Source of the DNA: an uncultured bacterium
GTDB taxonomy: Bacteria; Eisenbacteria; RBG-16-71-46; CAZHEV01
Reading direction: 5' to 3'
DNA length: 64,000 nucleotides
Assembly: GCA_964531335.1 (NCBI GenBank)
Contig: CAZHEV010000012.1
Coordinates: 34,866-98,865, forward strand
Under the pieces are notes generated by a model. It was not told the origin of the DNA. It did not search any database and saw only the letters and a program-made list of their open reading frames with translations. How positions within the stretch are numbered: position 1 is the first letter of the stretch; each line of letters begins with the position of its first letter. The translations under genes and the position numbers were made by a program. Positions 33,504-60,252 of this stretch are shown one piece after another.

Positions 33504-33509
33504 TAAGCC

Positions 33510-33549
33510 GCCCCGGGCGACGGGACCGACTCGCGGCCTGTCCCGGGGC
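33510..33549 (+). terminator. GC-rich hairpin after asnB (weak terminator candidate)
   Basis: GCCCCGGG (33510-33517) pairs with CCCGGGGC (33542-33549) across a 24-nt loop and is followed by TTTG. It has no long U-tract. Confidence 0.25.
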
Positions 33550-33660
33550 TTTGAAAAAAGCGAAGCGGGGGGAGCATCCCGGGCGCGGCGCGGGGGTAAG
33601 CTCAGAGTCGGAGATCGCGCGGCGGGATGAAGACAGGGAGGAAGAAAGGAGCCTTGCAGA

Positions 33661-34599: not shown

Positions 34600-34610
34600 A
34601 GCCGCGGTCG

Positions 34611-36329: not shown

Positions 36330-36330
36330 T

Positions 36331-37317
36331 TCAACTCCTTCCGGCCTGAGACACCACGCTTCTATAGACATCCAGAATTCTAAGCGAAACACGGGAAAGA
36401 TCAAGATGCGCGACCCTCTTCACGCCCTCCGTGCGCCCGCGCGCGGAGAGCACATCGCCGAGCGCCTCGGCTATCGGCCCCGCCTCGCGCGGGACCATAC
36501 GGCAGCCGTCCACGCCCTCGATCAGCTCGCGGACGTCGCCCACCTCGACGGATACTATCGGCAGGTCGCAGGCCATCGACTCCACGGCTATGTTGGGAGA
36601 ACCCTCGGAGTACGAGGTTATCAGGAGCGCGTCGCAGGCGTTCATGTGCAGGGATACCTTCTCCTCGCTGACGTTCGAGGGGGTGAGGATCTCGACGTCC
36701 ATGCCCCTGGCCTTCAGGAGGCCGACCGCCTCTTCGGCGAGAGGGAAGTTCTTGACGGGGATCGACCTGTCCCCAAGAAAGAGCACCTTGTGGCTGTCCA
36801 CCGGAAGACCCAGCGCGGCGCAGGACTGGGCCCTGTCCAGCGGCCTGAAAACCCTGAAATCCACCCCGCTCGGGACAACCACGACTTTCGAGCCGTTGGG
36901 GAACAGGTCCTTTATCTGCCGCGTCTTCACTATTACCGCGGAGGCGCTCTTGGCCGACTGCATCGCCGCTTTGACCAGGAGCCTGCTCACGGCCGTGACT
37001 TTGCCGTTGGGCTTTCGCCGGCCCAGCGCGTCGTCCCCCACGAAGGTCACCACCCAGGGGACCTTCTTCTGGCGGGCCGCTATGGCGCCGGTGAGCCCAT
37101 AATATGCGTGCACTATGTCATACCGACGCTCGGCGAGCCTGCGCTTCAGCCTGGGGAGGGCCCTTATGTACTCGCGGCGGTCCTTCCAGCCCTCGACCAC
37201 CATGACGTCGACGTCGACGCCGAGGTCGCGGAGCCCCTGCACCTCGCGCTTTACGTATATGCCGAGCCACTGCCGGTCGGGCTGCGGGTACATGTTCGTA
37301 AGCATTAGGACTTTCAT
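36331..37317 (-). CDS. glycosyltransferase family 4 (GT-B)
   Basis: A 328-aa ORF with MKVLMLTNMYP... and the C-terminal SYSEGSPNIAVESMACDLPIVS region (E-x7-E-like). Confidence 0.85.
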   Translation of the reverse strand: MKVLMLTNMYPQPDRQWLGIYVKREVQGLRDLGVDVDVMVVEGWKDRREYIRALPRLKRRLAERRYDIVHAYYGLTGAIAARQKKVPWVVTFVGDDALGRRKPNGKVTAVSRLLVKAAMQSAKSASAVIVKTRQIKDLFPNGSKVVVVPSGVDFRVFRPLDRAQSCAALGLPVDSHKVLFLGDRSIPVKNFPLAEEAVGLLKARGMDVEILTPSNVSEEKVSLHMNACDALLITSYSEGSPNIAVESMACDLPIVSVEVGDVRELIEGVDGCRMVPREAGPIAEALGDVLSARGRTEGVKRVAHLDLSRVSLRILDVYRSVVSQAGRS

Positions 37318-37353
37318 ATATCTATGTATCGGCCCGCGGCGTCCGCGGTCCTA

Positions 37354-38463
37354 TCAAGGCTCCTCTCCGGCCTCAGCCGCCAGGTGATAGACGGCCATCG
37401 CCAGATTCGCAGGGTAGGCGCGCGCGTCGCTCAGGATCCTGTAATCGCCGAAGGAAAACGGCAGGCTCCCGTCGGGCCTCTGCACGCCCAATGTCCACTC
37501 GTAGCCCTTTCGCGACAGTTCCCGGTATTCTCCCAGGCCCCATCGCGTGGCGCACGAAAGCGCATAGGCCAAGGTGTGGGCGTGATAGATGACGCGCGGA
37601 AGCTCGCTCTTGCAGCTATACCTGCAAGCCCCCTCGCCCGTGACCCCGCCCGCCAGAAAAGGGGCCATCTTGGCGGCGATGGACCGGGTCTCCAGGCGCT
37701 CCTTCCTCTTCCAGGAATGATAGAGATCTATCAGTTGAAACGCGTTGTACTGGTAACACTGGTAATGAGGGACGGAGCGGTCGTAGCCCTCCCCGGGGAC
37801 CTCGTAGGGCATCTCCCCGGTCTCTGTCTGCACGTCCTGGAGAAAGGCGAGCAGGGGGTCGGCCATCTTCATCGGCGCGGGGTCGTCCGAGGCGTCGGCG
37901 AGCTCCGAGAGAAACCAGAGCGCGGCGGTGGAGTTATTGGGCACCTTGCCGCGCGGCACGTTGAAGTAGTTGACCGCCGCTCCTTTTGCGCCGTGGCTCT
38001 GGTAACCTATGCGACCTTCCATGAACCTCCACCAGGCCACCGCCGCGTCCAGGCACTTCGCGTCGTCGGTCCGCCTGTATGTGGCCAGCAGTCCCGCGCC
38101 CGCCCAGAGCCCCTCTATGTTGGTCACCAGGTGGCGCCGCTCCGGCATGGGGCTGGGCCAGCTTCCGTCATCGCGCTGGCCTTCCATGCAGAAATCGCTC
38201 GAGGCCATGGCTATCTCGGCGAACCGGTCGTCCTTCGTGAGCCTGTGAAGTAGCCAGTTGCCGAGGATCCAATAGCCCTGGCCCTGGTAGGAGACGACGT
38301 CGTCCCTCCAGGGCAAGAAGGTCGTATATCCCTTGACGAACCGCCAGAACCTGAGGTTCCAGCGAACGCCCGGGGTGGGGCCGCGGAGGGCCTTGCCGTC
38401 CCAGTGCTCCCCCACGAGGTACTGGTGGAGCCTCAGGGCGGACTCGAGGAGGTTCTCTTTCAT
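37354..38463 (-). CDS. hypothetical protein, possibly an (alpha/alpha)6-toroid fold (terpenoid cyclase/prenyltransferase-like repeats)
   Basis: A 369-aa ORF with good coding appearance. The repeated DGSWP / PDGSLPF motifs resemble alpha/alpha-barrel repeat proteins. Function unknown. Confidence 0.6.
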   Translation of the reverse strand: MKENLLESALRLHQYLVGEHWDGKALRGPTPGVRWNLRFWRFVKGYTTFLPWRDDVVSYQGQGYWILGNWLLHRLTKDDRFAEIAMASSDFCMEGQRDDGSWPSPMPERRHLVTNIEGLWAGAGLLATYRRTDDAKCLDAAVAWWRFMEGRIGYQSHGAKGAAVNYFNVPRGKVPNNSTAALWFLSELADASDDPAPMKMADPLLAFLQDVQTETGEMPYEVPGEGYDRSVPHYQCYQYNAFQLIDLYHSWKRKERLETRSIAAKMAPFLAGGVTGEGACRYSCKSELPRVIYHAHTLAYALSCATRWGLGEYRELSRKGYEWTLGVQRPDGSLPFSFGDYRILSDARAYPANLAMAVYHLAAEAGEEP

Positions 38464-38782: not shown

Positions 38783-41782
38783 GTGAGACTTGTCAGAGTT
38801 TTTGTCTCATCTCCGGGAGACGTCCAGGAGGAGCGCAGGGTCCTGGAAGAGGTGGTGGACTCAGTTAACGGCGACGTCGGCGAGAGGCACTCCGTCTTCC
38901 TGAAGCTCTTTCGGTGGGAGAAGGACGTCGTTCCGCGGATAGGGCCCGCTCCTCAGGAGGTAGTGGACGCCCAGGCTCCCTATTGCGACATCTTCCTTGG
39001 GATCATGTCCGGCCGGTTCGGGACTAGAACGGGCAAGTGGGGCTCCGGGACGGAGCACGAGTTTCGCCAGGCGGTAGAGAGGTGGGGGAGGAGCGATTCC
39101 CCCTGGATCCTTTTCTACTTCGACGACGAGCCGCCGACACCGAAGACGCGTGATGCGGCCATGCAGTTCGCCAAGGTTTTGGAGTTTCGCGAGGAACTCA
39201 AGAAGCTCGGGATTACGGGCAGCTACAAAGGCGTGCAGGGCGACCGTTCTTCGTTTGCCTGGCAAGCCGGCGAGCACCTGCGCCGGATCGTGCTCAATCA
39301 TCTGCCGCCAATTGAATCGGGGGAAGGCGCCGGGGCGAAAAGACCGGCGCCCGGCCACATGGTAGAGGCCGGACTCAAACCACCTGCCGTTCCAAAGGCG
39401 TACCGCGACTGGCTATGTTCCCAGTGCTCGGAGATCGGCCTCCTGGGTCTCGAGCTCAAGCAGTCCCACGCCGTAAGGCTCAGCCATGTGTACGTCCCGC
39501 TATGCACTCACGCTGTCTCCGAAAAGAAGCGCGGCGAGCGTTCCCGCCGTGAAGACGAGCGCTTCCTGACCGACATGCCCGGGCGTGAGGCCAAGCCGCG
39601 GTTGCTCCTTGATCTTCTCGGGAAGGAGTCCCTCTACGTTCCCGGGGCGCCGGGGGCGGGCAAGTCGACCTTCTGCCGGTGGGTGGCGTGGCTTGTTTGC
39701 AACGCTGACATGCCTTCCTACATAACCGAAGCCGCGGACACCCCGGAGGGCTACGCTGAGAGCTTTCCCAGCGCCTTTGGCGGGAGACTCCCGGTCCTGA
39801 TCAGGCTGCGCGAGTTCTGGGAGTACCTGCCACGCTCGCCGGGTCGATGCGAGATGACAAAGGACGAGCTGGATAGAGCAATCGGAGAGTGGTTCGAGAA
39901 CAAGACGCCCAAGGGCATCGAATGGACCGGCGGCAGCGGGCGGGCGGACCTTGCGACTCATATGGAGCAGGGCTCGGCGATCCTGATATTGGACGGGGCC
40001 GACGAGGTGCCGCTCTCCGGCGAAGAGAAAAGGCCCTGCTCTCCGCGTGCGATGCTCCTGTCGGGCCTCGCCTCGGCCGTACCGTCATGGATGAAGACCG
40101 GCAATCGGGTCCTGCTGACGAGCCGCCCCTACGGGCTGGGCACTCGGGAGTCCGAGACGCTGGGCCTTAGGCAGGCGCCCATAGTAGAGCTGGACCCTGA
40201 CCTCCAGAACCTTCTCATTATACGCTGGTTTGCGATCCTTGAAGGTGACTCCGCTACCGGCGAGGAGGTGGCCCGGGAGATGATCACGCACATACGCGGT
40301 CGCAACGACATAGATCCTCTTGCCTCAAATCCGATGCTCCTCACCGCGATGTGCGTGATATACGGCGAGGGCAAGCGCCTACCCCAGGATAAGCACGATC
40401 TCTACACGCGTATCGTCAACAACGTGCTGTACAACCGGTTCCACCGCGATCCGACGCTTATCGACCCGGTCCGCAACCGTCTCGCCGTCGTTGCGCACGG
40501 AATGCACACAGGTGAAGCTCTCGAAGAGGACAGAACAGCTCCCCAGGTGGAGGCGACGAACGAGGAGATAGACATAATCCTCCGGGACTACCAGGACAAC
40601 GTGCCGTTTACCGAGTCCGCCTTCGTGGACGCCGTCCAGGCGCGCGAGCAGCTTCTGGCCGAGTCCGGGCTGCTGCTGCCCCGCGGGGAGGGCAGGGCGG
40701 GGTTCTACCACCTCTCCTTCCAGGAGTTCCTCGCCGCACAGAGGCTCATGGAGCTGGATGCAGCACGCCTCCGGGAGGTATTCCGAGAGCGAGCGGAAAC
40801 CTCCGAGTGGAGAAACACTCTTTCGTTCCTGTTCAGCTCAAGACTGGCCGGATCGGTGTCCCCGGAGGGGAGCACCAGGTTGCTGGCGGAACTGCTGAGC
40901 GAAGTCTCCGTTGAGAAGCTCGGGCTGCACGTGGTCGTGGCGGACTGTTTTCAAATACTGCTGGGAAAGGGGATCCGGCTTCCGGAGGCTCTCGAGGAGA
41001 AGTTCCGAAAGGACTGCCTGAGCGCGATCAAGGCGGAGGTCTCCATTCCCGAAAGGGTGCATCTCGGGCTGGTGCTGGGGCAGATAGGCCACCCCAGAAT
41101 TGTGACGGATCTCAGGGACAGGGCCGCGTATGTGGAGGTGCCGCCAAAGCGGTATTTTGTGGGCGAGAAACGAAAGCGTTTTGATTTGAAAGAGAGTTTT
41201 CTGCTCTCGCGATATCCGGTGACCAACGGGCAATATGCGGTCTTCGTTGAAGAAGAGGGATACAAGGATCGGAAGTGGTGGTCTGATGAGGGATGGAAGT
41301 GGCGTGAAAGTGAAGACGTCCGCGAACCCGGCTACTGGCACGATCGTACCTGGAATGGTCCCACTCAGCCGGTCGTGGGCGTATCGTTCTACGAGGCGGA
41401 GGCGTTCGCGCGCTGGGCCGGAGGCCGTCTGCCCGCCGAGAGGGAATGGGAAGCGGCGGCACGAGGGCCGGAAGGATACGTCTATCCCTGGGGGGACGAC
41501 TGGGAGGAAGGTATCTGCAACAGCGATGAGTCCGGCGTCGGCGCCACAACGCCGGTCGGCCTCTTCCCTCGGTCTCGGTCGGCGCCGTTCGAGCTGGAGG
41601 ACATGTCGGGCAACGTGTGGGAATGGTGCTCGGATTACTATGACCCGACGGGGTCGCCCGGAGCCCGTGTTCTGCGCGGCGGTTCCTGGATCTATGGATC
41701 GAGGGGCCTGCGCGCCGCCATTCGCCTCAGGGGCGTCCCCGTCCTCCGGGTCGTCAGCATAGGATTTCGGGTTGTCTTGTGA
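38783..41782 (+). CDS. DGR target 1: NLR-like STAND NTPase (DUF4062/TIR-like N-domain, NACHT, HEAT-like linker, C-terminal FGE-type C-type-lectin fold carrying VR1)
   Basis: A 999-aa ORF starting at GTG 38783, with GGAGG upstream. The N-terminus reads VRVFVSSPGDVQEERR...CDIFLGIMSGRFG...ILFYFDD. Walker A GAPGAGKST is at 39644-39670 and Walker B ILILDGADE at 39980-40006. The FGE/SUMF1-like domain spans about 41129-41779 (YPVTNGQY...VVGVSFYEAEAFARWAGGRLPAEREWE...GNVWEWC...RGGSW...IGFRVVL). Confidence 0.93.
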   Translation: MRLVRVFVSSPGDVQEERRVLEEVVDSVNGDVGERHSVFLKLFRWEKDVVPRIGPAPQEVVDAQAPYCDIFLGIMSGRFGTRTGKWGSGTEHEFRQAVERWGRSDSPWILFYFDDEPPTPKTRDAAMQFAKVLEFREELKKLGITGSYKGVQGDRSSFAWQAGEHLRRIVLNHLPPIESGEGAGAKRPAPGHMVEAGLKPPAVPKAYRDWLCSQCSEIGLLGLELKQSHAVRLSHVYVPLCTHAVSEKKRGERSRREDERFLTDMPGREAKPRLLLDLLGKESLYVPGAPGAGKSTFCRWVAWLVCNADMPSYITEAADTPEGYAESFPSAFGGRLPVLIRLREFWEYLPRSPGRCEMTKDELDRAIGEWFENKTPKGIEWTGGSGRADLATHMEQGSAILILDGADEVPLSGEEKRPCSPRAMLLSGLASAVPSWMKTGNRVLLTSRPYGLGTRESETLGLRQAPIVELDPDLQNLLIIRWFAILEGDSATGEEVAREMITHIRGRNDIDPLASNPMLLTAMCVIYGEGKRLPQDKHDLYTRIVNNVLYNRFHRDPTLIDPVRNRLAVVAHGMHTGEALEEDRTAPQVEATNEEIDIILRDYQDNVPFTESAFVDAVQAREQLLAESGLLLPRGEGRAGFYHLSFQEFLAAQRLMELDAARLREVFRERAETSEWRNTLSFLFSSRLAGSVSPEGSTRLLAELLSEVSVEKLGLHVVVADCFQILLGKGIRLPEALEEKFRKDCLSAIKAEVSIPERVHLGLVLGQIGHPRIVTDLRDRAAYVEVPPKRYFVGEKRKRFDLKESFLLSRYPVTNGQYAVFVEEEGYKDRKWWSDEGWKWRESEDVREPGYWHDRTWNGPTQPVVGVSFYEAEAFARWAGGRLPAEREWEAAARGPEGYVYPWGDDWEEGICNSDESGVGATTPVGLFPRSRSAPFELEDMSGNVWEWCSDYYDPTGSPGARVLRGGSWIYGSRGLRAAIRLRGVPVLRVVSIGFRVVL

Positions 41783-41799
41783 ATTGGCGTCAGGACTCC
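41666..41799 (+). repeat. DGR variable repeat 1 (VR1) plus IMH-like 3' end
   Basis: Aligns to TR 43428-43561 at offset 1762. There are 19 differences, all at TR adenines (hand alignment). It includes the target 1 stop codon at 41780-41782. Confidence 0.92.
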
Positions 41800-41836
41800 G
41801 TATCAGCTTGGCCCCTTTACATTTGTCTTTCTCTGT

Positions 41837-41860: not shown

Positions 41861-41887
41861 GCAAGTGCTTTGCGGGACTACACAGCT

Positions 41888-42265
41888 ATGCCGGAAGCCT
41901 CCTCGGAAATGTTGTTGATTACGAAAATGTATGACTTCGTGCTGTGGAGCTGCCGGCACATCGCCAAGTTTCCGCGAAGCCACCGTTTCACTCTCGGCGA
42001 CAGGATGGAGGTCCGACTGTACGAGTTGCTCGAGCTTTTTCTGAGGGCGAAGTATTCTCGTGATCGGCTTCCAACTCTGCGGAAGGCCAACATGGAGCTG
42101 GAGCTACTTCGCTTCCAGTTTCGTCTCGCGAAGGACTTGGAGTGCCTTTCGGTGAAAAGCTACGGCTGCTCCTCACGCACTGTGAATGAAATCGGCAAGC
42201 TACTGGGCGGGTGGGTCAAGAAAGCCTCCGCGAAACCGGTGCAAACCCCAAGGCGGCAACCATGA
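41888..42265 (+). CDS. avd: DGR accessory variability determinant (Avd; four-helix-bundle / 23S rRNA IVS-protein family)
   Basis: ORF 41870-42265 (TTG); ATG 41888 or 41909 is the likely start. The sequence LLITKMYDFVLWSCRHIAKFPRSHRFTLGDRMEVRLYELLELFLRA...LELLRFQFRLAKDL matches the helical FP-(K/R)-x-x-(R/K)-(F/Y)-x-L-G-D-(Q/R) pattern of this family. Its position immediately upstream of the RT also fits. Confidence 0.85.
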   Translation: MPEASSEMLLITKMYDFVLWSCRHIAKFPRSHRFTLGDRMEVRLYELLELFLRAKYSRDRLPTLRKANMELELLRFQFRLAKDLECLSVKSYGCSSRTVNEIGKLLGGWVKKASAKPVQTPRRQP

Positions 42266-42297: not shown

Positions 42298-43362
42298 GTG
42301 AGAAGACAAGGCGGCATCTGGGAGGAGCTCATTAGCTTCCCGAATCTTCTGCGGGCGGCCCAGAAGGCCGCCCGCGGCAAGCGGGCTCGGTCGAACGTGG
42401 CTCGGTTCCACCTGGACCTGGAAGGGCAGCTCTGTCGGCTCCAGGACGAGCTTATCGCGAAGACTTACCTTCCGGGTCAGTATCGAACCTTCGCGATACA
42501 TGAGCCGAAGGCCCGCACTATCAGCGCCGCACCGTACCGGGATCGTGTCGTCCATCACGGCCTTTGCCAAGTGCTGGAGCCGGCATTCGAACGTCGGTTC
42601 ATCTTCGACAGCTACGCGTGCCGCAAGGGAAAGGGGACTCATGCGGCGCTGGCCCGCTTCACGCAGTTCGCCAGAAGAAACCGCTACGTCCTCAAGTGCG
42701 ACGTTCGAAGGTACTTCCCGTCTATCGACCATGAGATCTTGAAGGGACAAGTCCGAAGGAGGATCAAGGACCGGGACGCCCTGTGGTTGGTCGATCTGAT
42801 CGTCGATCATTCCAATCCACAGGAACCTGTGTGCGACTGGTTTCCCGGAGACAATCTGCTCACGCCTTCAGAGCGGCGCCGTGGTCTTCCGATTGGCAAC
42901 CAGACAAGCCAGTTCTTTGCCAACGTCTATCTCGATCCGCTGGACCACTACGTCAAGGAGCGGCTGCGAGCGCGCTACTACATTCGCTACGTCGACGACT
43001 TTGTTGTCTTCGGGGATGACAAAGAGTGGCTCTCAGACGTGCGGGATCGGTGCGCGGGGTTCGCTCGCGGCCTTCGTCTGGCTCTACACGAGCGAAAGTG
43101 CGTGATATCCCGCACCTGCGATGGTACGCGATTCCTCGGTTTTCGCGTCTTCCCTACTCACAGGCTGCTCGCGCGGGAGAACGTCGCCCGGACGAGGCGG
43201 CGGCTCCGGTGGCTTGGGGGCGAGTTCGCCGCGGGTCACGTGTCGGCGGCTGATGTGAGCCGCCGCATTATGAGCTGGATAGGGCACGCTCAGCACGGAG
43301 ATACATTCCGCTTGCGCTCCAGGCTCTTCAGGGAGAATACTTTCTCACGGAAGGGCGAGTAG
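42298..43362 (+). CDS. DGR-type reverse transcriptase
   Basis: A 354-aa ORF starting at GTG. RT motifs include [50 protein letters not shown] (the [ILV]GxxxSQ variant that I recall as DGR-specific) and [12 protein letters not shown] (YxDD). Confidence 0.95.
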
Positions 43363-43427: not shown

Positions 43428-43561
43428 CGTGTTCTGCGCGGCGGTTCCTGGAACAATGAATCGAGGAACATGCGCGCCGCCATTCGCAACAGGAACAACC
43501 CCGACAACCGGAACGACAACATAGGATTTCGGGTTGTCTTGTGAATTGGCGTCAGTACTCC
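43428..43561 (+). repeat. DGR template repeat (TR) with IMH*-like 3' end
   Basis: This non-coding copy lies 66 nt downstream of the RT stop and is rich in AAC triplets. In the target frame it would read [38 protein letters not shown]. It is the adenine-bearing parent of VR1 and VR2. Confidence 0.92.
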
Positions 43562-43718
43562 ACATGGAAGCTTCGGGCATGGCAATTGCGTTGTCCAAGG
43601 AGGGCCGGAGCCGGCCGATTCACGGATCGGACGGGAGCGCCCCCGTGGGAGTCCAGACCGCCGTCCGGCGTCGGCCGCATGGCCCGGGGCCTCAGTCGGC
43701 CGGCCGAAACAACAAACC

Positions 43719-43763: not shown

Positions 43764-43826
43764 TCGTCAAGAGCATTCGTTCTAGCGCGATCTGAAGGAA
43801 GACGCCGCATGAGGAGGGCGGAAGGG

Positions 43827-45056
43827 ATGCTGAGCAAGGAAGATGAGGGTCTTCTGAAGAAGGCACTGAACGTCTTTGACCCGGCGCGTCCACTTGAGGG
43901 CGAGCTGTTGGACAGCTTCTACATTTCTAGGCCCCATGCGCCCTTGAAGGCAATGAAGGCCTATCTCCGTGCCAACCAGAGCCCCGTCAAGGTGCTTTTC
44001 TGCGGTCACAGGGGTTGCGGGAAGTCAACGGAGCTTGCGCGTCTGGCAAAGGATCTGGAAAATGAGTTCTTAATTGTCCCGGTCTCGGCCCGATCGCTCG
44101 ACCTGGCCGATCTCACCTATGTCGATGTCATCCTTGCCTCCGCGGCGGGATTGTTCCTCCAGGCAAGCTCGGTGAAAGGCGCGGCTAGGATCAAGTCAAG
44201 CGTGCTGAAAGACGTGCTGGAGTGGCTTGGGAGCGAGATCGTCCGGGAAACGACGGTGTCCGTCTTGAAGTCGGGAAATATGGGCGCGAAGCTGAGTGTT
44301 TTGATACTCAGCCTCCAAGGCAAGTACTCGAGTGAGACGACCACGCGCAAGACGGTGAGAGACCGCCTGTATCGGCAGGTAAGCGACCTCATTCAGCGCA
44401 TGGATGCCGTATGCGAAGAGCTGGAGAAGAAAGGCGTTCCGCCGCTGATACTCTTTGAAGATATAGACAAGGCGGATCTGGAGAGGGCACGAGGTCTGTT
44501 CGTAGAACATAGGAACACCATGATCAGCCCGGCATGCAGGATAATCTATACTTTTCCGATTTCATTGAGACATTCACACGAGTTTCCGGCCATTCGACGT
44601 GACTACAGCAAGGTGTTCTCTCTCCCAAACATCAGTATCAACGAGAGAAATGGTTCGATCGACGCGCGGGGGCGTGAGGCCATAGGGTCCGTGATTACAC
44701 GAAGAATCCCGGGGGAAGTCTTCGAGAAGAAGGCCTTCGATTCCATTGTGGAATTGAGCGGAGGACTTATGACGGACCTGGTTCGCCTTGTCTCGGATGC
44801 CGCCCTTATCGCCTTGACCGAAGGATCCTCGCACATTACAAATGAGATAGTGGAACGTGTCGAGGCTGAGATGGCTAACGACTACCGTAGGATTCTTGTG
44901 TCCGAGCACTATGATGCGTTGAGGCGCTCACTCAGTGAAAAAGAGTTCGTTGCCGACGATGTGACCCGCGAATTGCTGGCGAACCAAAGCCTTCTTGAAT
45001 ATCGCAATAACAAAGTGTGGTGCGACGTACACCCCATTGTTCGAGGGTTGTTGTGA
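43827..45056 (+). CDS. P-loop AAA+ ATPase (ORC/Cdc6-like or STAND-related), function unknown
   Basis: ORF 43809-45056 (ATG at 43809 or 43827). Walker A is FCGHRGCGKSTEL and Walker B is PPLILFEDIDKAD, followed by an alpha-helical C-terminal half. The stop TGA (45054-45056) overlaps the ATG of target 2 (45056). Confidence 0.85.
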   Translation: MLSKEDEGLLKKALNVFDPARPLEGELLDSFYISRPHAPLKAMKAYLRANQSPVKVLFCGHRGCGKSTELARLAKDLENEFLIVPVSARSLDLADLTYVDVILASAAGLFLQASSVKGAARIKSSVLKDVLEWLGSEIVRETTVSVLKSGNMGAKLSVLILSLQGKYSSETTTRKTVRDRLYRQVSDLIQRMDAVCEELEKKGVPPLILFEDIDKADLERARGLFVEHRNTMISPACRIIYTFPISLRHSHEFPAIRRDYSKVFSLPNISINERNGSIDARGREAIGSVITRRIPGEVFEKKAFDSIVELSGGLMTDLVRLVSDAALIALTEGSSHITNEIVERVEAEMANDYRRILVSEHYDALRRSLSEKEFVADDVTRELLANQSLLEYRNNKVWCDVHPIVRGLL

Positions 45057-48000
45057 TGGGAACTAGGATCGATATGGATGCGCCGCTACAGCGGCTGGTA
45101 ACCTTGCTGAAGAACCTCGAGGAGGGAGCGATAATCTTTGCCGTCTATGATATGGCGGACGTTCCAGGTCGAGCTATCGGAGCTCTCAGAGCCCTGCTGG
45201 AGGGCCGCGTTCTGGAGCTCCGCATCGACAGGGAGCACAGAAACCCCGTCGATCTGGTTCGTTCTGCTGATGCGCGAAAGGGCGACGTGCTTTGCGTCCT
45301 GAACCTGGAGGAGGGCTTTCCGGACGCATTGGGCTATCTGGATCTTCAGCGGGAGGAGCTATTGGAATTCGGTGTGCCGGTCGTGATCTGGGTGACGCCG
45401 CACGAGCACCGCGAAGTAATAAGAAGAGCCCCGAACCTATACAGGTTCAGGAAAACGCTTGTGGACTTCAGGAGGGCCGGCTCCGAGGGACCACTTGAAT
45501 CCCGATCCGTACCCAAGGTCTTCATCTCGTCGACTGTAGAGGATCTGCGGCCGTATCGCGAGGCGGCGCGGGACGCGGCCATCAACGCGGGCTTCTTCCC
45601 TGTGATGATGGAGTATTTCACGGCCGTCGGCAGACCCCCGCTCGATGAGTGCATGGGCAAAGTGTCCGAGGCCCACCTGGTCGTAGTTATCCTCGCGCAT
45701 CGCTACGGGTGGGTCCCGGATGACCAGCCGGCCGGTGGAGACAAGAGTATCACCTGGCTTGAATGTGAGAGGGCGGAGCAGGAAGGCAAGGAGGTCCTGG
45801 CGTTTATCGTCGATGACGCCCGGAGTTGGCCCGAGGAGCGCCGAGAGGAGCACGATCTGGCTGTCGCCGCGAGAGAGAGCAAAGCGACCCCTGAGTTGCT
45901 GGAGAGGGTCCAGACAAGAGTTGCACGCCTGAGGCAGTTCAAGCGCTGGCTGGACGGCCGCGGGGTGCGCGTGACATTCACGACGCCCGAGGACCTGCAC
46001 GGGAAGATCTCGAATGCCCTGCACGCCTGGAGAAGCCGACATCCGGGCTTGGCCCAGAGTGCGGCCAAAACGCCCGCCCTGCCCGCCGACCCTGCGCGGT
46101 ATCTGAAGTACGTTCGGGAACAGACGGCGTACATAGACATCCGAGGGCTTCAGGTGGGCAGCGGCAAGGTCTTCCGATTTCCCATAGAGGACCTCTATAT
46201 CACTCTCACGACCACGGCCTCCGCGGAGACGGCTAAAGAGGAGAAGCGCAAGGGCAGGAAGGCGCGCGATGAGGCGGACCCCATGATGTCTCGCAGGGAC
46301 TCGTCCGTTCCTCTTCACAAGGCCCTGGCGAAGCGCCGGCTCGTGGTGGTCGGCGATCCCGGCTCCGGCAAGACGACGTTTCTGAGACGCGTCGCGTCCA
46401 CGCTTTCCCAGACGGCGCTCGGCGAGGTTCCCGACGCGGCGAAGAGTCGGCTGGGTCTGGCGGGAAAGCCGCTTCCGGTATTCGTCCGGCTGGTAGAGCT
46501 CGCCGAGCACATCGAGGAGAGTCGCCGCGTCCACGGCGGTCGGCGTCCATTGGCTCGCGACGCCGCTCGATGGCTGCCGCACTTTCTGGCATCCACAACC
46601 GAGGACGGGGGGCATGGGCTTGACGAGGAGTACTTCCGGGAACGCTTGGAGAAAGGCGATTGCGCGATCCTTCTCGACGGGTTGGACGAGGTCCCCACCC
46701 GTCCTTCTCGCGAGGGGATGTCCCGGCTCATAGAAAGGCTGGCCGGCGCCTATAAGGGCTGCATCCTCGTGGTCACCAGCCGCCCCGCCGCGTACACGGG
46801 GGAGACGGTGCTCCCCGGCTTTACACACGCGCGGATCGAATCGCTCGAAGAAGAAGCAATCGCAACCTTCCTCGGGAAGTGGTCGGGCGCTCTCTGTCCT
46901 GAGAGCCCCGGCGAGGCCGAACGCCACCGCGACGAGCTTGCGGGGGCTCTGACAAGCCGCCCGGAGATAAAGCGCATGGCGCGGAACCCGGTGATGCTCA
47001 CGGCGCTTGCCGTGGTCCATTGGAACGAGAGGCGGCTCCCGGAGCAGAGGGCGGATCTCTACCAGTCGATCATAAGATGGCTGTCCAGATCCCGCGAGCA
47101 GCGCTCTGAGAGGCTCCCCTCGGACAGATGTGTCGCCGTGTTGCAGGAGCTCGCCCTGGCCATGCAGAGTCACCCCGAAGGCCGCCAGGTCCAGGTGACG
47201 AGGCGATGGGCGGCGGAGGCGATCGCCGTCGAGCTCACCGGCGAGGGAGCGCAGCGCGCCGTGGCGGAGGCGCCCTCGGTGCGCGAGACCGCAAGATATG
47301 GCGCAGATGACATGAAGCCCGCGGGCGAGCCGTCGAGGCACGCCATAGAGCTGGCAGAACGCTTCCTCGAGGAGGAGGAGCAAGACAGCGGGATAGTGGT
47401 AGGCCGCGGAAACGAGATCCGCTTCTGGCATCTCACCTTTCAGGAATACCTGGCGGCGCGGGCTATTGCCGCCCGCTCCGAGGCGGAGCAGAAGGCGCTA
47501 CTTTTCGGCGATAGTGACAGAATCCACCGCCCCGACTGGCGCGAGGTCGTCCTGCTGCTGACTGGGGTGTTGCACCAGCAGGGCAGACAAAAGGTGGATG
47601 GGTTCGTATCCCAGGCGCTCGACATGATCGGAGAGAGGCCGAGCCTCTCCCGTCAGGCGCGGTGCGCCGGTCTTCTGGGCGCCCTTCTCCGCGATCTGGC
47701 CCCCCTGGACTATAGGATTTCCGACGCAAGATATCCGAAGCTCCTCGATACGGTCATGGGCGTATTCGACGCGAAGCGCTCGAGGTCGGTTTCCATTGAG
47801 GAGCGCGTCGAGGCGGCGGAGGCGCTGGGCCAGGCGGGCGACCCCCGACTGAACATGAACGATCCCGATCGCTGGATACACATACCCAAGAAGCCCTTCC
47901 TCATGGGAGCTCAGAAAAAGGATCCAACGAAGCCCGGTTACGATCCGGGGGCTGACGATGACGAGGCGCCGGTGAGGACAGTAAACCTCGATGCCTACCG

Positions 48001-48598
48001 GATCGGGCGCTACCCGGTGACGGTGGAGGAGTACGAGCGGTTCGTCGAGCACGGGGGCTACGAGGAGAAGCGTTGGTGGAAGGAGGGGGGCTTCGGGCAG
48101 TTCGCCGAGCCGGGGGACTGGGAAGAACAGCTCGCACACCCCAATCGCCCTGTTGTGGGTGTGAGTTGGTATGAGGCGGCTGCGTACGCGGCGTGGGCGG
48201 GGTGCGGGCTTCCCACGGAGGCTCAGTGGGAGAGGGCGGCCAGGGGCACGGACGGCCGAAAGTACCCCTGGGGGGACGATCCGCCCGATCCCGCCAGATG
48301 CAATTACGAAGAGACCAGGCTTGGACGCGCGACGCCCGTGGGTGTCTTCCCGCTGGGCGCGACACCGGAGGGCGTTTGCGACATGGCCGGAAACGTCTGG
48401 GAGTGGTGTCAAGATTGGTACAGTGAGGCATACGAGCCCGGCCGGCTTGACAACCCTCGGGGGCCTGACAGAGGGACACTTCGTGTTCTGCGCGGCGGTT
48501 CCTGGGGCTATGTATCGTGGAACTTGCGCGCCGCCATTCGCGGCGGGGGCAACCCCGGCGACCGGCTCGACGACCTGGGGTTTCGGGTTGTCTTGTGA
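45056..48598 (+). CDS. DGR target 2: NLR-like STAND NTPase (unknown N-module, DUF4062, NACHT, HEAT-like linker, C-terminal FGE-type C-type-lectin fold carrying VR2)
   Basis: ORF 45017-48598. ATG 45056 overlaps the upstream stop (ATGA). The DUF4062-like region KVFISSTVEDLRPYREAARDAAINAGFFPVMMEYF...ILAHRYGWVP...ITWLECERA...VLAFIVDD spans about 45515-45830. Walker A GDPGSGKTT is at 46352-46378 and Walker B ILLDGLDE at 46667-46690. The FGE-like domain spans about 47873-48595 and ends ...RGGSWGYVSWNLRAAIRGGGNPGDRLDDLGFRVVL. Confidence 0.93.
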   Translation: MGTRIDMDAPLQRLVTLLKNLEEGAIIFAVYDMADVPGRAIGALRALLEGRVLELRIDREHRNPVDLVRSADARKGDVLCVLNLEEGFPDALGYLDLQREELLEFGVPVVIWVTPHEHREVIRRAPNLYRFRKTLVDFRRAGSEGPLESRSVPKVFISSTVEDLRPYREAARDAAINAGFFPVMMEYFTAVGRPPLDECMGKVSEAHLVVVILAHRYGWVPDDQPAGGDKSITWLECERAEQEGKEVLAFIVDDARSWPEERREEHDLAVAARESKATPELLERVQTRVARLRQFKRWLDGRGVRVTFTTPEDLHGKISNALHAWRSRHPGLAQSAAKTPALPADPARYLKYVREQTAYIDIRGLQVGSGKVFRFPIEDLYITLTTTASAETAKEEKRKGRKARDEADPMMSRRDSSVPLHKALAKRRLVVVGDPGSGKTTFLRRVASTLSQTALGEVPDAAKSRLGLAGKPLPVFVRLVELAEHIEESRRVHGGRRPLARDAARWLPHFLASTTEDGGHGLDEEYFRERLEKGDCAILLDGLDEVPTRPSREGMSRLIERLAGAYKGCILVVTSRPAAYTGETVLPGFTHARIESLEEEAIATFLGKWSGALCPESPGEAERHRDELAGALTSRPEIKRMARNPVMLTALAVVHWNERRLPEQRADLYQSIIRWLSRSREQRSERLPSDRCVAVLQELALAMQSHPEGRQVQVTRRWAAEAIAVELTGEGAQRAVAEAPSVRETARYGADDMKPAGEPSRHAIELAERFLEEEEQDSGIVVGRGNEIRFWHLTFQEYLAARAIAARSEAEQKALLFGDSDRIHRPDWREVVLLLTGVLHQQGRQKVDGFVSQALDMIGERPSLSRQARCAGLLGALLRDLAPLDYRISDARYPKLLDTVMGVFDAKRSRSVSIEERVEAAEALGQAGDPRLNMNDPDRWIHIPKKPFLMGAQKKDPTKPGYDPGADDDEAPVRTVNLDAYRIGRYPVTVEEYERFVEHGGYEEKRWWKEGGFGQFAEPGDWEEQLAHPNRPVVGVSWYEAAAYAAWAGCGLPTEAQWERAARGTDGRKYPWGDDPPDPARCNYEETRLGRATPVGVFPLGATPEGVCDMAGNVWEWCQDWYSEAYEPGRLDNPRGPDRGTLRVLRGGSWGYVSWNLRAAIRGGGNPGDRLDDLGFRVVL

Positions 48599-48615
48599 AT
48601 TGGCGTCAGGACTCC
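48482..48615 (+). repeat. DGR variable repeat 2 (VR2) plus IMH-like 3' end
   Basis: Aligns to TR 43428-43561 at offset 5054. There are 19 differences, all at TR adenines (hand alignment). It includes the target 2 stop codon at 48596-48598. Confidence 0.92.
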
Positions 48616-48967
48616 GTAACGGTTTAGCCCCTTTACAGGTCCGCCGGGCACGCGCCCTCACGTCCGGGGAGCACGGCACGTCTCCGAGTTGTCCACCCGG
48701 CCGCCCCCGCTTGTACCATCTCGTAGCCTGTGCTAACATAATCTCGGTAATTGGCGGAGGCAAGCAGGGTGAGAGCTGGATGACCTCCTCACAGGATTGG
48801 TTTGGTTCCTCACGGCCTGGGCCGGACGTGGCCTGGCCCTGGCCGCAACGAACTTTGCCTTACACTTTCACTCGAGCCCTGACGATTTTGGACTTCTGGC
48901 GTTGTCCCGGCGCCGCCGCTCGCGGCGGCGGCCCTGAGATCGGATTACCCCAGGGCGAAAAGGACGT

Positions 48968-49939
48968 ATGCGAGTTTTTGTAACCGGCGTGTCAGGCTTC
49001 GCCGGAAGCCACCTGGCGGAGCTCCTTCTTGCCGGCGGGCATGAGGTTCACGGCTTTACGGACGATCCGTCCCTCGACGACAATCTTGCGCCGCTTGCGG
49101 GCCGCGTGAAGATCTCGAAGGGCGACATCCGCGATCGCCGGGCTGTCCGCTCGGCTCTCTCCGAGGCGAGACCGGAAAGAATATACCATCTGGCCGCGGT
49201 CACCCCGGGCAGGGGCCACCCGAAGGACGAGCTTTTCTGGGAGGTCAACGTGGGCGGCACGGCGATCCTGCTCGATGAGGCCTCGCGGCTGGAGCGGGTC
49301 AAGGTCTTGGTGGCCGGATCGAGCGCCGAGTACGGCCTGATCCCCAGGAAGGACAATCCCCTCACGGAGGCGGCGGAGCTTCGCCCCATGGGGGTGTACG
49401 CGGTCAGCAAGGCGGCTCAGACGCTCCTGGCCTTCTCATACTGGGCCCATCAGGGAGTATGGGTTGTAAGGACCCGGGCGTTCAACCACACGGGGCCGCG
49501 CGAGGACACAGGCTTTGTCTCGTCCACCTTCGCGCGGCAGGTGGCCGCGGCGGAGGCCGGCGCCGCCGAGCCCGTGATTCGGGTTGGCAATCTTAGCGCC
49601 TACAGGGACATAGCCGACGTTAGGGACATAGTGAGGGGCTACGTCGCCGCCCTGGAAGGGGGTAGGGCCGGAGCCCTGTACAATATTTGCTCGGGCATCC
49701 CCACGCAGGTCCGGGAGGTTCTGGACAGGCTGGTTGCCATGTCCGAGAGGCCGCTCAGGGTTGAGGTGGACCGGGATAGGCTGAGGCCCTCGGATCTGCC
49801 CTTCCAGCAGGGCGACTCGTCCCTTCTCGAGAAGGAGACCGGCTGGAAGCCCGAGATCCCCCTGGAGAGGACCATCGGGGACCTACTCGAGTACTGGAGG
49901 CTAAGGTTAAGAAAAGAAACGGGATCAACACGCCGATAA
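48968..49939 (+). CDS. NAD-dependent nucleotide-sugar epimerase/dehydratase/reductase (SDR; GDP-4-keto-6-deoxymannose reductase-like)
   Basis: A 323-aa ORF with MRVFVTGVSGFAGSHLAELL and GVYAVSK (YxxxK). Confidence 0.85.
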   Translation: MRVFVTGVSGFAGSHLAELLLAGGHEVHGFTDDPSLDDNLAPLAGRVKISKGDIRDRRAVRSALSEARPERIYHLAAVTPGRGHPKDELFWEVNVGGTAILLDEASRLERVKVLVAGSSAEYGLIPRKDNPLTEAAELRPMGVYAVSKAAQTLLAFSYWAHQGVWVVRTRAFNHTGPREDTGFVSSTFARQVAAAEAGAAEPVIRVGNLSAYRDIADVRDIVRGYVAALEGGRAGALYNICSGIPTQVREVLDRLVAMSERPLRVEVDRDRLRPSDLPFQQGDSSLLEKETGWKPEIPLERTIGDLLEYWRLRLRKETGSTRR

Positions 49940-49968
49940 CGTAGGAAACCTCGGGAATAGGAGGGGCG

Positions 49969-50958
49969 ATGGACTGGTCTGGGATCAAGGTGCTGGTTAC
50001 GGGAGCCGGCGGCTTCATCGGAAGCCATCTTACCGAGCGTCTGGTCGCCGAGGGCGCTTCGGTGAGGGCCTTTGTCCGGTACAACTCAAAGGGCTACAGG
50101 GGATTCATCGATGATTTCCCCCCGCAGGTCATGGAGGCCCTGGAGGTGGTCGCGGGCGATCTGGGAGACTCGGATGCGGTGTACCGCGCCATGGAGGGCG
50201 TCGAGTACGTCTTCCATCTCGGGGCCCTTATAGCCATCCCTTACTCCTATGTCCATCCAAGGGACGTCGTCAAGACGAACGTGATGGGAACGCTGAACGT
50301 GCTGTCGGGCTGCCGCGACCACGGCGTCAAGAGGCTCGTGCACACGTCGACGAGCGAAGTGTACGGGACGGCGCAGTACGTCCCGATCGACGAGAAGCAC
50401 CCCCTCGTGGGACAGTCGCCTTACTCGGCCAGCAAGATAGCGGCTGATCAGATAGCGGAGAGCTTTTACCGGTCCTTCGACGTGCCCGTCGCGACGCTGC
50501 GACCGTTCAACACCTACGGGCCGCGCCAGTCGGCGAGGGCGGTAATCCCGTCGGTCATCAGCCAGGCGATAGGAAGGGACGTGGTCCAGGTGGGCGCGAT
50601 GCACCCCGTGAGGGATCTCACTTTCGTCTCCGATACGGTGCAGGGGTTTCTGCTGACCGCGGAGCGGGACGAGGCGGTCGGGGTGGTGACGAACCTCGGC
50701 TGGGGTACCGGCATCTCGGTCAAGGATCTCGTGGAGAAGATAGTGTCCATCGTCGGCAGGAAGGTGGAGGTCATGTTCGACGCCACCAGGCTCAGGCCCG
50801 CGAAGAGCGAGGTGGACAGGCTAATCGCCGACAGCACCCAGGCGAAGGCCAGGTTGGGCTGGGAGCCCAAGGTGGAGCTCGACGAAGGTCTCAGGCAGAC
50901 GGTGAAGTGGATCAGCGAGCACTTCGACATTTACAGTCCCTCGACGTACGCTGTCTAG
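49969..50958 (+). CDS. NAD-dependent nucleotide-sugar 4,6-dehydratase/epimerase (extended SDR)
   Basis: A 329-aa ORF with GAGGFIGSH, TSTSEVYG, YSASK and RPFNTYGPRQ. GGAGG lies upstream. Confidence 0.88.
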   Translation: MDWSGIKVLVTGAGGFIGSHLTERLVAEGASVRAFVRYNSKGYRGFIDDFPPQVMEALEVVAGDLGDSDAVYRAMEGVEYVFHLGALIAIPYSYVHPRDVVKTNVMGTLNVLSGCRDHGVKRLVHTSTSEVYGTAQYVPIDEKHPLVGQSPYSASKIAADQIAESFYRSFDVPVATLRPFNTYGPRQSARAVIPSVISQAIGRDVVQVGAMHPVRDLTFVSDTVQGFLLTAERDEAVGVVTNLGWGTGISVKDLVEKIVSIVGRKVEVMFDATRLRPAKSEVDRLIADSTQAKARLGWEPKVELDEGLRQTVKWISEHFDIYSPSTYAV

Positions 50959-50974
50959 GGGCCGGCTGCGGGAT

Positions 50975-51676
50975 GTGCCAATGGATGCTGTAGTCATGGC
51001 GGGCGGTAAAGGGACCAGGCTGCGGCCCCTTACATACGCGATACCCAAGCCGCTGCTTCCGGTGGGGGAGCGGCCCATACTGGAAATACTGCTCGGCCAG
51101 CTCAAGAAGAGCGGGTTCACGCGCGTGTACGTAAGCATCGGGTACAAGGGCGATCTCATAAGATCATATCTGGGCGACGGCTCGCGCCTGGGCGTTTCCG
51201 TGGAGTACGTGGACGAGCCGGAGGCTCTGGGGACGGCGGGCGCCCTGGCGCTCATAAAGGACCGTCTCAAGAGCCCGTTTCTGATGGCAAACGGGGATAT
51301 CTTGACGAAGCTCGACTTCGACAGGTTCTACGCCGAGCATGTTTCGGAGGGCGCGGCGATGACGGTGGGCTGCATCGAGTACAAGGTGCAGATCCCGTTC
51401 GGAGTCGTGAAAAGCGACAACGGTCTCGTGCGTGGAATAGCGGAGAAACCGACAACGACGCACCTGGTGGCCTCGGGCATATACGTGCTGAGCCCGGAGG
51501 CGCTGGAAGCCTTGGGCGCCCCCGAGCGCCTGGACGTCCCGGACCTCATGCTGGGCCTGGTCAGGCGCGGCAAGAAGGTGCGCACCCACGTTATCACGGA
51601 GCCCTGGCTGGACGTCGGAAAGATGAGCGACTACGAAAGGGCGACGCAAGAAGCGGCCTCATGGGGAGGCGTTTGA
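50975..51676 (+). CDS. sugar-phosphate nucleotidyltransferase
   Basis: A 233-aa ORF with the MAGGKGTRLRPLTYAIPKPLLPV signature. Confidence 0.9.
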   Translation: MPMDAVVMAGGKGTRLRPLTYAIPKPLLPVGERPILEILLGQLKKSGFTRVYVSIGYKGDLIRSYLGDGSRLGVSVEYVDEPEALGTAGALALIKDRLKSPFLMANGDILTKLDFDRFYAEHVSEGAAMTVGCIEYKVQIPFGVVKSDNGLVRGIAEKPTTTHLVASGIYVLSPEALEALGAPERLDVPDLMLGLVRRGKKVRTHVITEPWLDVGKMSDYERATQEAASWGGV

Positions 51677-51678
51677 GA

Positions 51679-52995
51679 ATGAGGATATCCGTGTTCGGAC
51701 TCGGATACGTCGGCTGCGTCAGCTCGGCATGCCTGGCCGATCAGGGGCACGAGGTCATAGGCGTAGACATAAGCGAGTTCAAGGTGGACGCGATAAAGGC
51801 CGGCAGGAGCCCGATCATAGAGAAGGGGCTCGACGAATTGATTTCGCGGGCCGTCGAGCGGGGAAGCCTGACCGCCACCGCAGACGTCAGGGGGGCCGTC
51901 GCCGGCACGGAGCTCTCGCTCATATGCGTGGGGACCCCGAGTGGGGGGAGCGGCGAGATAGACATGAGCTACGTCTATCGAGTGGCCGGGAGCATAGGCG
52001 CGGCATTGAAGGATAAGGCGGACTTTCACGCCGTGGTCTTCAGGAGCACGATGCTGCCCGGTTCCATGGAGGGAGAGGTGATCCCGCGACTTCTGGAGGC
52101 TTCGTCCCGCGGGCTGGGGGGCGGCATCGGCGTGGGCTACAACCCCGAGTTCCTGAGGGAGGGAAGCGCGGTCAAGGACTTCTTCAATCCGCCTCTGACC
52201 GTGATCGCGGTCACCGACCAGGCGACGAAGGAATGCGTCCGGCGCGCGTACGGCTTCGTTGGCGCGCCCTTCATAGTCACCGACATGAAGTCGGCCGAGA
52301 TGATCAAGTACGTAAACAACGCTTTTCACGCACTGAAGGTGGCCTTCGCGAACGAGATCGGAACGATTTGCAAGCACGAGGGCATCGACGGCCGCGAGGT
52401 GATGCGGCTGTTCTGCATGGACGACAAGCTGAACCTTTCGGCGACGTATCTTCAACCCGGCTTCGCTTTCGGGGGAAGCTGTCTGCCGAAGGATCTCAAG
52501 GCGCTTTCCGGGCGAATCAAGAGCGCGCAGATATCCGCCCCCGTGCTGAGATCGGTCCTGCGCAGCAACGAAGATCACATAGAGCGGGCCACCAAGCTGA
52601 TAGAAGGAGCGGGGGGCAAGAAGGTGGGCATCCTCGGTTTGAGCTTCAAGGCGGAAACCGACGACGTGCGCGGAAGCCCCGTGGTCAAGATAATAGAGAC
52701 CCTGGTCGGCAAGGGCTACGAGGTCTCCGTTTACGATTCCAACGTCGATCTCAGCCGGATAATGGGCACCAACCGGCGGTTCCTCGAAGAGGAGGTGCCG
52801 TACCTGCCCTCGATACTGAGATCGTCCCCCGGCGAGATCACGTCCTCGTGTGACGTGATAGTGGTGGCTAACAAGAGCCTGGAATTCAAGGACATCGCGG
52901 CCGCGACGCGGCCCGAGCAGACGCTCGTTGATATAGTCGGCATCTTAGAGGACGGGTCGGGACTGAAAGGCAGGTACATTGGCATCTGCTGGTAA
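51679..52995 (+). CDS. nucleotide-sugar 6-dehydrogenase (GDP-mannose/UDP-glucose dehydrogenase family, AlgD-like N-terminus)
   Basis: ORF 51661-52995. MRISVFGLGYVGCVSSACLADQGHEVIGVD begins at 51679. The catalytic Cys motif GGSCLPKD is present. Confidence 0.92.
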   Translation: MRISVFGLGYVGCVSSACLADQGHEVIGVDISEFKVDAIKAGRSPIIEKGLDELISRAVERGSLTATADVRGAVAGTELSLICVGTPSGGSGEIDMSYVYRVAGSIGAALKDKADFHAVVFRSTMLPGSMEGEVIPRLLEASSRGLGGGIGVGYNPEFLREGSAVKDFFNPPLTVIAVTDQATKECVRRAYGFVGAPFIVTDMKSAEMIKYVNNAFHALKVAFANEIGTICKHEGIDGREVMRLFCMDDKLNLSATYLQPGFAFGGSCLPKDLKALSGRIKSAQISAPVLRSVLRSNEDHIERATKLIEGAGGKKVGILGLSFKAETDDVRGSPVVKIIETLVGKGYEVSVYDSNVDLSRIMGTNRRFLEEEVPYLPSILRSSPGEITSSCDVIVVANKSLEFKDIAAATRPEQTLVDIVGILEDGSGLKGRYIGICW

Positions 52996-60192: not shown

Positions 60193-60252
60193 AATACTGC
60201 CTAGAGGCTTTGGGCAGTGCCGCGCGGTCGGAGCCGATTCGTCGAAACGGAA

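Follow-up and report, generated by a model that had tools for sequence, protein, structure and literature searches.

A predicted AAA+-like N-terminal domain without a P-loop, paired with an upstream ATPase, on one of two targets of a bacterial diversity-generating retroelement

The 64,000-nt stretch of DNA analysed here (the window; positions 34,866 to 98,865 of contig CAZHEV010000012.1, from an uncultured Eisenbacteria bacterium) carries a canonical diversity-generating retroelement (DGR), in which a single template repeat (TR) feeds two target genes (Table 1). Each target encodes a central NACHT NTPase, a C-terminal DGR-diversified domain of the FGE/C-type-lectin (CLec) fold and an N-terminal effector, and the bAvd gene, the reverse transcriptase (RT) gene and the TR lie between the two, as in the STAND-CLec DGRs described as ‘clade 5D’ (Dore et al., 2024, PMC10907252) and as NTPase-FGS systems (Kaur et al., 2021, PMC8195603). 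Target 2 is a bona fide DGR target: RT and bAvd lie nearby, and every mismatch between its variable repeat (VR2) and the TR is at a TR adenine (19/19 mismatches over the 120 nt compared); the same was found for VR1 of target 1 (19/19 mismatches, 120 nt compared). An initial annotation of the window, made from the sequence alone, had correctly recognised the DUF4062-NACHT-FGE layout common to both targets and the single TR feeding them, and had pointed to an extra N-terminal module on target 2. While the overall system belongs to a known class, what is new is the apparently pseudo-AAA+ family to which this module belongs, otherwise unnamed and unannotated and here called X, together with a dedicated ATPase, both on only one of the two receptors.

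At present, the best candidates for hypermutating antigen receptors in bacteria are STAND-lectin proteins diversified by DGRs, and many of their N-terminal extensions have been reported without characterised domains (Dore et al., 2024, PMC10907252; Kaur et al., 2021, PMC8195603). Unlike in the STAND-CLec DGRs as described, one such hitherto unannotated extension is resolved here as a defined domain, AAA+-like by predicted fold and lacking a P-loop, with a constant genetic partner ATPase. The remainder of target 2 is readily assigned: DUF4062 (PF13271, residues 154–240) scores 71.9 bits against a Pfam cut-off of 24.7 and begins with KVFISS at residue 154 (nt 45515), NACHT (NACHT/AAA_16 at residues ~427–609) scores 40.6 bits against a cut-off of 26.7, and FGE-sulfatase (residues 939–1179) scores 194 bits. 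Walker A (GDPGSGKTT, 46352-46378) and Walker B (ILLDGLDE, 46667-46690) of the NACHT module are both intact, and the coordinates that the initial annotation had given for these and other elements were all correct. DUF4062 has been reported as a TIR-like NADase, with activity in other members of the family (bioRxiv 10.64898/2026.05.01.722283), and by family membership that of target 2 is a TIR-like effector and putative NADase.

X, a conserved domain at the N-terminus of target 2

Residues ~8–140 of target 2 are a conserved domain that has no match in the domain libraries searched. Residues 1–153 had no match at E≤1 in either Pfam or NCBIfam and none in PADLOC or among PDB sequences, and a word-indexed protein search with residues 1–155 was equally empty; an exhaustive phmmer search with the same residues against 1.84 billion cluster representatives was needed, and it returned 172 representatives of X at E≤1e-3 (30 at E≤1e-10) in proteins of 130 to 2300 aa, the best of them 41–46% identical to the X of target 2. 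The family hidden Markov model (HMM) matches the window X with E = 4.1e-51 over HMM positions 2–145 of 148. X is placed at the extreme N-terminus, 147 of 149 copies beginning at or before residue 44, and carries a conserved signature made up of the motifs R-E, W and A-P-[DN]-F: R99 is invariant, E100, W112 and A125-P126-x-F128 are nearly so, and R132 is also conserved. The X of target 2 has R99, E100, W112, A125 and P126, with a leucine at position 128 where the family has phenylalanine. That these residues could not be assigned to any family, as the initial annotation stated, holds for the libraries but not beyond them, as they belong to a large unnamed family with a predicted AAA+-core fold. 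We found no description of X or of its ATPase pairing in the literature, Pfam, NCBIfam or PADLOC, a search that did not extend to supplementary alignments, where the family may have been described earlier under another name; on N-terminal pseudo-ATPase modules or ATPase-coupled DGR targets, the literature yielded only general frameworks (Kaur et al., 2020, 2021; Dore et al., 2024). An X profile could annotate hundreds of N-termini now called ‘hypothetical’, and X might merit a new domain-family entry.

The stretch encoding X is translated, because residues 1–155 belong to a conserved family (172 representatives; HMM E = 4e-51). The target 2 ATG at 45056 shares one base with the stop codon of the upstream ATPase gene (TGATG) and lies 8 nt downstream of a Shine-Dalgarno-like GAGGG. 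Over the N-terminal 459 nt there are no stops in the target 2 frame, as against 8 and 4 in the other two, and the codon-position GC of this stretch (0.69/0.40/0.67) follows a pattern like that of the remainder of the gene. The extra module proposed by the initial annotation is in this respect real, translated and part of a conserved family, and the possibility, also raised there, that translation starts only near 45515 falls away with the finding that the N-terminus is a conserved domain with 172 representatives.

Predicted fold of X

AlphaFold modelled X as five β-α units from the single sequence (predicted local distance difference test, pLDDT, 76), in keeping with the α/β character foreseen by the initial annotation, and an AF2 model built with a 47-sequence alignment reached a pLDDT of 92.8 and a predicted template modelling score (pTM) of 0.87. 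In the AF2 model the elements run α0-β1-α1-β2-α2-β3-α3-β4-α4-β5 and then into a disordered linker, an order that matches α0-β1...β5 of AAA+ proteins. The structure search that the initial annotation had advised did retrieve AAA+ cores, both from the PDB and from BFVD: for either model the top 50 Foldseek matches in the PDB were all AAA+ ATPase cores, and the named top matches in BFVD were nearly all AAA+-type ATPases. PDB matches included RAD17/RFC1, RuvB, ORC/Cdc6, FtsH, MuB, TnsC, Vps4, Bcs1, an Avs5 STAND and 2gno (TM0771), a clamp-loader-type protein annotated as DNA polymerase III gamma subunit-related. The scores (E about 1e-5 to 1.5e-3; query-normalised template modelling score, TM, 0.44–0.64) support membership of the same fold class, not close kinship.

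The Walker A motif GxxxxGK[ST] is found in none of 193 non-redundant X domains, and the loop after β1 of the window X reads YDMAD; judging from its sequence, X is unable to bind ATP, Walker A having been lost across the family. At the end of β3, where the acidic residues of Walker B would be expected in an AAA+ protein, the window X has LNLEE (residues 81–85) and the family has [DN]-x-E with the glutamate in 67% of members, a tentative correspondence read from sequence. An arginine finger in helix α4 (R119 in the window) was considered and dropped, as no arginine is more than 50% conserved among the 193 domains. The term that fits X best is an AAA+-like core with neither P-loop nor lid, a description drawn from the predicted fold, since by sequence criteria it does not class as an AAA+ member. 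Akin to dead AAA+ subunits such as clamp-loader delta' and inactive ORC, it would combine an AAA+ core fold with a degenerate P-loop, and its structural matches include RFC, RAD17 and ORC subunits; dead AAA+ subunits, however, keep lid/collar domains and detectable sequence homology, and X keeps neither.

An ATPase gene directly upstream of X

The decisive context of X, which the initial annotation missed, is the ATPase gene at 43809-45056, directly 5' of target 2. The encoded protein keeps both Walker A and Walker B and is apparently an active ATPase, belonging to a family of more than 541 homologues of ~410 aa. Its Pfam matches are weak and generic (AAA_16, ATPase_2, ORC-CDC6-like, KAP), with no AAA_3, AAA_5 or nSTAND2 match; beyond weak P-loop matches it has no family in Pfam, NCBIfam or PADLOC, and alignment against PDB sequences matched only P-loop and lid fragments. 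The family has an invariant segment near its C-terminus (LSLLEYRN..W.DVHP). X was absent from all 120 ATPase homologues inspected, and the X and ATPase HMMs each have a single match in the window (at 45056 and 43809). The start of the ATPase gene is ambiguous by 6 codons, a database copy (P0151, 100% identical, 409 aa) beginning at the second methionine, at 43827.

The ATPase and X form an almost obligate, translationally coupled pair that diverges together; in the window the coupling is through the TGATG. Scanning of metagenomes from the ATPase side gave 80 loci, and in 57 of the 63 with at least 450 nt of downstream sequence (90%) X lies immediately 3' on the same strand; where less than 450 nt was available, the beginning of X is visible in 9 of 17. 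From the X side, for which a locus search with a narrow X alignment gave 4 genomic loci, the gene next upstream of X proved to be the ATPase at 11 of 12 independent loci, and the ATPase lies 5' of X on the same strand, abutting or overlapping it, in L001/2, L003/4/8, L005/6/7, L009, L010, L013, L014/15, L016 and L017. The neighbourhoods of three ATPase homologues each hold a downstream protein that starts with X, and the called genes overlap by 4 nt at one extreme and are a few tens of nt apart at the other. For 56 non-redundant ATPase/X pairs, the identity between any two ATPases correlates with that between the corresponding X domains (r = 0.853, Mantel p = 0.001), and the nearest ATPases and nearest X domains to those of the window come from the same loci. 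The ATPase was also considered as a DGR accessory factor and rejected as such, as no RT homologue was found in the scanned metagenomic ATPase-X loci and the ATPase tracks X, not RT. ATPases 5' of targets with unknown extensions have been noted in other DGR clades (Dore et al., 2024, PMC10907252); the ATPase-X unit of the window is found mostly outside DGRs.

Some loci depart from the simple two-gene layout. The ATPase preceding an X-TPR gene at L016:913-2175 is split into two open reading frames (ORFs; 289 and 118 aa), by a frameshift or a sequencing error. Two proteins, P0069 (608 aa) and P0102 (226 aa), are single ORFs joining a partial ATPase that includes Walker A to X, and in P0102 the β1-P-loop-α1-β2 of the ATPase runs directly into the second half of X; they may have arisen by deletion or as chimeras of assembly, or may be Rosetta-stone fusions.

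What follows X varies. TPR arrays stand behind it in 68 of 109 representatives, and other bodies are NB-ARC/AAA_16-TPR, TIR/SEFIR-STAND-TPR, TIR-EAD1-nSTAND2, NACHT, NACHT-FGE, Metallophos-NACHT-FGE and TPR-CHAT. A constant X with variable bodies follows the syntax known from conflict systems, ‘constant core, variable payload’. The ATPase-X pair precedes many immune-type bodies across several phyla (TPR, NB-ARC-TPR, TIR-STAND, CHAT) and makes a compact, directly testable two-gene unit. At L078:1544-4684 an X-TPR-CHAT gene, CHAT being a C-terminal caspase-like protease, lies directly 3' of the ATPase. Solo X proteins (138–158 aa) follow the ATPase at L046:6209-7871 and L062:6221-7908 and are themselves followed by a conserved ORF of ~365 aa without a Pfam match, so that the cassette may here consist of three genes.

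The closest relatives of the body of target 2 are DUF4062-NACHT-FGE proteins of ~1000 aa that are 48–59% identical to it, and in nearly all of its close relatives DUF4062 begins within about the first 25 residues. Of 120 close relatives, 3 carry X (P0271–P0273), and all three have the ATPase directly upstream (L098–L100), whereas an X-less control (P0280, L101) has neither ATPase nor X within 8 kb. The co-occurrence of the module with DUF4062-NACHT proteins that the initial annotation had asked about is thus seen in these three, the rest of the 120 being without X. Target 1 has no X and no partner ATPase by HMM scan of the window, and over NACHT-FGE it is 31% identical to target 2. Because this compares with 48–59% to X-less proteins elsewhere, target 2 is not a local duplicate, and its description as a longer paralog stands for the shared layout but overstates the kinship. 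The nearest relatives of the window ATPase-X unit are ATPase + X-NB-ARC-TPR cassettes, mostly in metagenome-assembled genomes labelled Acidobacteriota, Armatimonadota or ‘Proteobacteria’. These relationships point to an ATPase-X unit grafted onto one lineage of the large DUF4062-NACHT-FGE family, rather than to target 2 as an elaborated copy of target 1.

Of the loci with an X-bearing relative, L099:8941-15131 is a related single-target DGR comprising the ATPase, X-DUF4062-NACHT-FGE (VR at 13351-13483), bAvd, RT and TR (14999-15131); its RT matches that of the window with E = 2e-165, and its ATPase matches in two frames (HMM positions 5–310 and 381–407), possibly through a frameshift. L098:7590-12290 holds the ATPase and X-DUF4062-NACHT-FGE pair with no RT, Avd or TR repeat in 22 kb around, and may be a remote or orphan target. 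As for target 1, its residues 1–145 (38783-39217) match the PADLOC candidate-defence model PDC-S60 (E = 6.6e-32), and BLASTP did not align these 145 residues with the DUF4062 region of target 2.

Possible roles of the ATPase-X unit

On balance we favour the view that X is a pseudo-AAA+ docking module through which the partner ATPase controls target 2, with target 1 acting alone. Part of this view is demonstrated, with high confidence: that X exists as a domain, to which class its predicted fold belongs, that it has lost Walker A, that its gene is paired with that of the ATPase and the two sequences have diverged together, and that target 2 is targeted by the DGR; physical binding of X to the ATPase and the direction of control are what we infer, and any one direction between ATPase and receptor can be put forward only tentatively. 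X would dock the target 2 receptor onto the partner ATPase in one of two ways: as a pseudo-subunit completing a mixed AAA+ assembly, by the logic of clamp-loader delta', inactive ORC subunits and the nSTAND2 pair, or as a handle gripped by an ATPase ring or switch, by the logic of MoxR-vWA systems. By turning over ATP, the partner would then gate the ligand-triggered oligomerisation of NACHT, set its threshold or reset it, and would thereby control firing of the TIR-like DUF4062 effector, while target 1, with neither X nor partner ATPase, would fire autonomously. The division of labour between the two targets that the initial annotation suggested is a reasonable idea, the concrete difference being the coupling to an ATPase, and ATP-dependent control may be something that can be added to, or be absent from, otherwise similar receptors, as in target 2 and target 1.

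Both active/inactive NTPase pairs and cores of an ATPase with a co-chaperone have been described in conflict systems (Kaur et al., 2020, PMC7159879; Kaur et al., 2021, PMC8195603). In the nSTAND2 operon, for which a hetero-assembly was predicted, an active P-loop NTPase is likewise adjacent to a partner with eroded motifs that is fused to variable modules (Kaur et al., 2021, PMC8195603, Fig. 6C). X differs in being a core of only ~135 aa, with no lid or winged helix and no conserved arginine finger, in lacking, as does the ATPase, any Pfam nSTAND2 match, and in lying N-terminal to a second, complete and active STAND. Similarly, in the MoxR-vWA ternary systems (Kaur et al., 2020, PMC7159879) and in DGR 8/9 of Dore et al. 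(2024), a constant ATPase gene lies directly 5' of a protein that has a constant domain at its N-terminus and variable parts, sometimes including a DGR-diversified FGE. Here, however, the ATPase is not a MoxR, X has no vWA match, and no third component (VMAP or iSTAND) was seen.

Several observations weigh against the docking view. In one case, the X-NACHT-FGE protein P0022, the gene upstream encodes an EAD7 protein and not the ATPase; at the P0022 loci (L011:150-7171 and L012:788-7809) the EAD7 protein has 136 aa and is preceded by an Fe-alcohol dehydrogenase further upstream, and a second NACHT-FGE gene lies downstream. The 6 ATPase loci without X form one subclade with no plus-strand gene downstream (L025, L030, L031, L035, L036 and L037, their ATPases 40–42% identical to that of the window; the stretches that follow were judged tRNA-like by eye from translation). 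Tight pairing and correlated divergence would also be given by a co-inherited operon whose products do not touch. As to the fold, it was assigned from a predicted structure whose TM scores are moderate (0.44–0.62), the X profile matched nothing among PDB sequences below E = 0.39, and hhalign of X against the partner ATPase profile gave a probability of 0.7%, which is not significant (the best local alignment is in register with α0-β1-loop-α1-β2 and is not counted as evidence). Finally, X has no C-terminal helical lid, the domain stopping at β5 in the AF2 model, and this, together with the want of a conserved arginine-finger-like residue, makes the pseudo-subunit version weak.

A reading that shares the genetics of the docking view, pairing and correlated divergence included, takes X as the client tag of a chaperone- or unfoldase-type ATPase: much as in MoxR-vWA, X would be autoinhibitory, and its remodelling or removal by the ATPase would license the receptor. 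We regard this as unlikely: the ATPase is not MoxR-like, matching AAA_16, ORC-CDC6-like and KAP instead of AAA_3 or AAA_5, and the proposal is in any case a sub-variant of docking rather than a true alternative. Slightly less likely still is that X is an inactive NTPase with an added sensing role, such as that of a nucleic-acid receptor of iSTAND type, and that the ATPase is a separate co-operonic component. Inactive STAND modules have been proposed to retain an ORC/Cdc6-like ancestral nucleic-acid binding (Kaur et al., 2021, PMC8195603), and X, an AAA+-like core without a P-loop, has the conserved basic residues R99 and R132. But its ~135-aa core is without the lid and winged helix with which ORC/Cdc6 and STAND proteins engage nucleic acids, most X proteins already have a sensor (TPR or FGE) behind X, and the tie of X to one particular ATPase in ~90% of loci would be left unexplained.

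More improbable than either is an adaptor of the EAD kind, by which X would recruit a second X-bearing protein through homotypic contact. Like EADs, X is strictly N-terminal and stands ahead of STAND modules or effectors, and there are solo X proteins (138–158 aa). EADs, however, typically occur in several copies per locus, on NTPase and effector proteins, whereas the window has one X and the scanned loci no second copy, discounting the few cases where the match to a single X ORF was split; EADs are short and helical, while X is predicted to be five-stranded α/β and has no EAD Pfam match; and the constant neighbour of X is an ATPase that itself lacks X. Lastly, that the first ~150 codons go untranslated, with the true start of target 2 near 45515, is excluded by conservation for practical purposes: GC at third codon positions is somewhat lower in the N-terminal stretch (0.67, as against 0.78 in the rest of the gene), but the family HMM matches the domain at full length (E = 4e-51), the model reaches a pLDDT of 92.8, the stretch is one open frame behind a coupled ATG with its GAGGG, and there is no start codon at 45515, no in-frame ATG, GTG or TTG lying immediately 5' of it and the closest being a GTG within the last strand of X.

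Returning to docking, a broader and rather doubtful extension would make the ATPase-X unit a widespread control module that has escaped description, in which an AAA+ partner grips a pseudo-AAA+ handle and thereby sets or resets the threshold of oligomerisation or firing, serving in DGR loci as a checkpoint against self-reactive hypermutated variants. Were this true, the ATPase-X checkpoint would be a bacterial analogue of the licensing or tolerance control of a diversifying antigen receptor.

Table 1. Features of the DGR locus, in window coordinates.
Feature	Position	Strand	Evidence
Target 1 (DUF4062-NACHT-FGE, without X)	38783..41782	+	Pfam, HMM scans
VR1 (target 1)	41666-41821		repeat and TR alignment
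bAvd accessory protein	41870..42265	+	Pfam bAvd, E = 1.5e-23
DGR reverse transcriptase	42298..43362	+	Pfam RVT_1, E = 1e-20
Template repeat (TR)	43428..43583 (about)	+	repeat family D1, alignment
Partner P-loop ATPase, 415 aa	43809..45056	+	Walker A GHRGCGKST, Walker B LILFEDIDK
Target 2, 1180 aa	ATG 45056 to stop 48598	+	ORF
X domain (target 2 residues 1–140)	45056..45475	+	family HMM, AlphaFold
X/DUF4062 linker (target 2 residues 141–153)	45476..45514	+	pLDDT 30–50; homologues unaligned past ~residue 140
DUF4062 (TIR-like) of target 2, residues 154–240	45515..45775	+	Pfam PF13271, E = 5e-20
NACHT NTPase core of target 2	46334..46882	+	Pfam NACHT and AAA_16
FGE/C-type-lectin-fold domain of target 2, residues 939–1179	47870..48592	+	Pfam PF03781, E = 4e-57
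VR2 and invariant 3' stretch running beyond the target 2 stop	48482..48637	+	repeat family D1, alignment

Around the DGR island, the 5' flank (31233-38253) holds an asparagine synthase-like gene and a carbamoyltransferase gene, and Pfam matches neither of the two ORFs just 5' of target 1 (36406-37308 and 37324-38253). The 3' flank (48968-52995) is a nucleotide-sugar run of two GDP-mannose-dehydratase/epimerase-like genes, a nucleotidyl transferase gene and a UDP-glucose dehydrogenase gene. The sole Rfam matches in the window are tRNA-Gly(GCC), tRNA-Cys(GCA) and tRNA-Leu(TAA), at 60116-60327 and 63408-63495.

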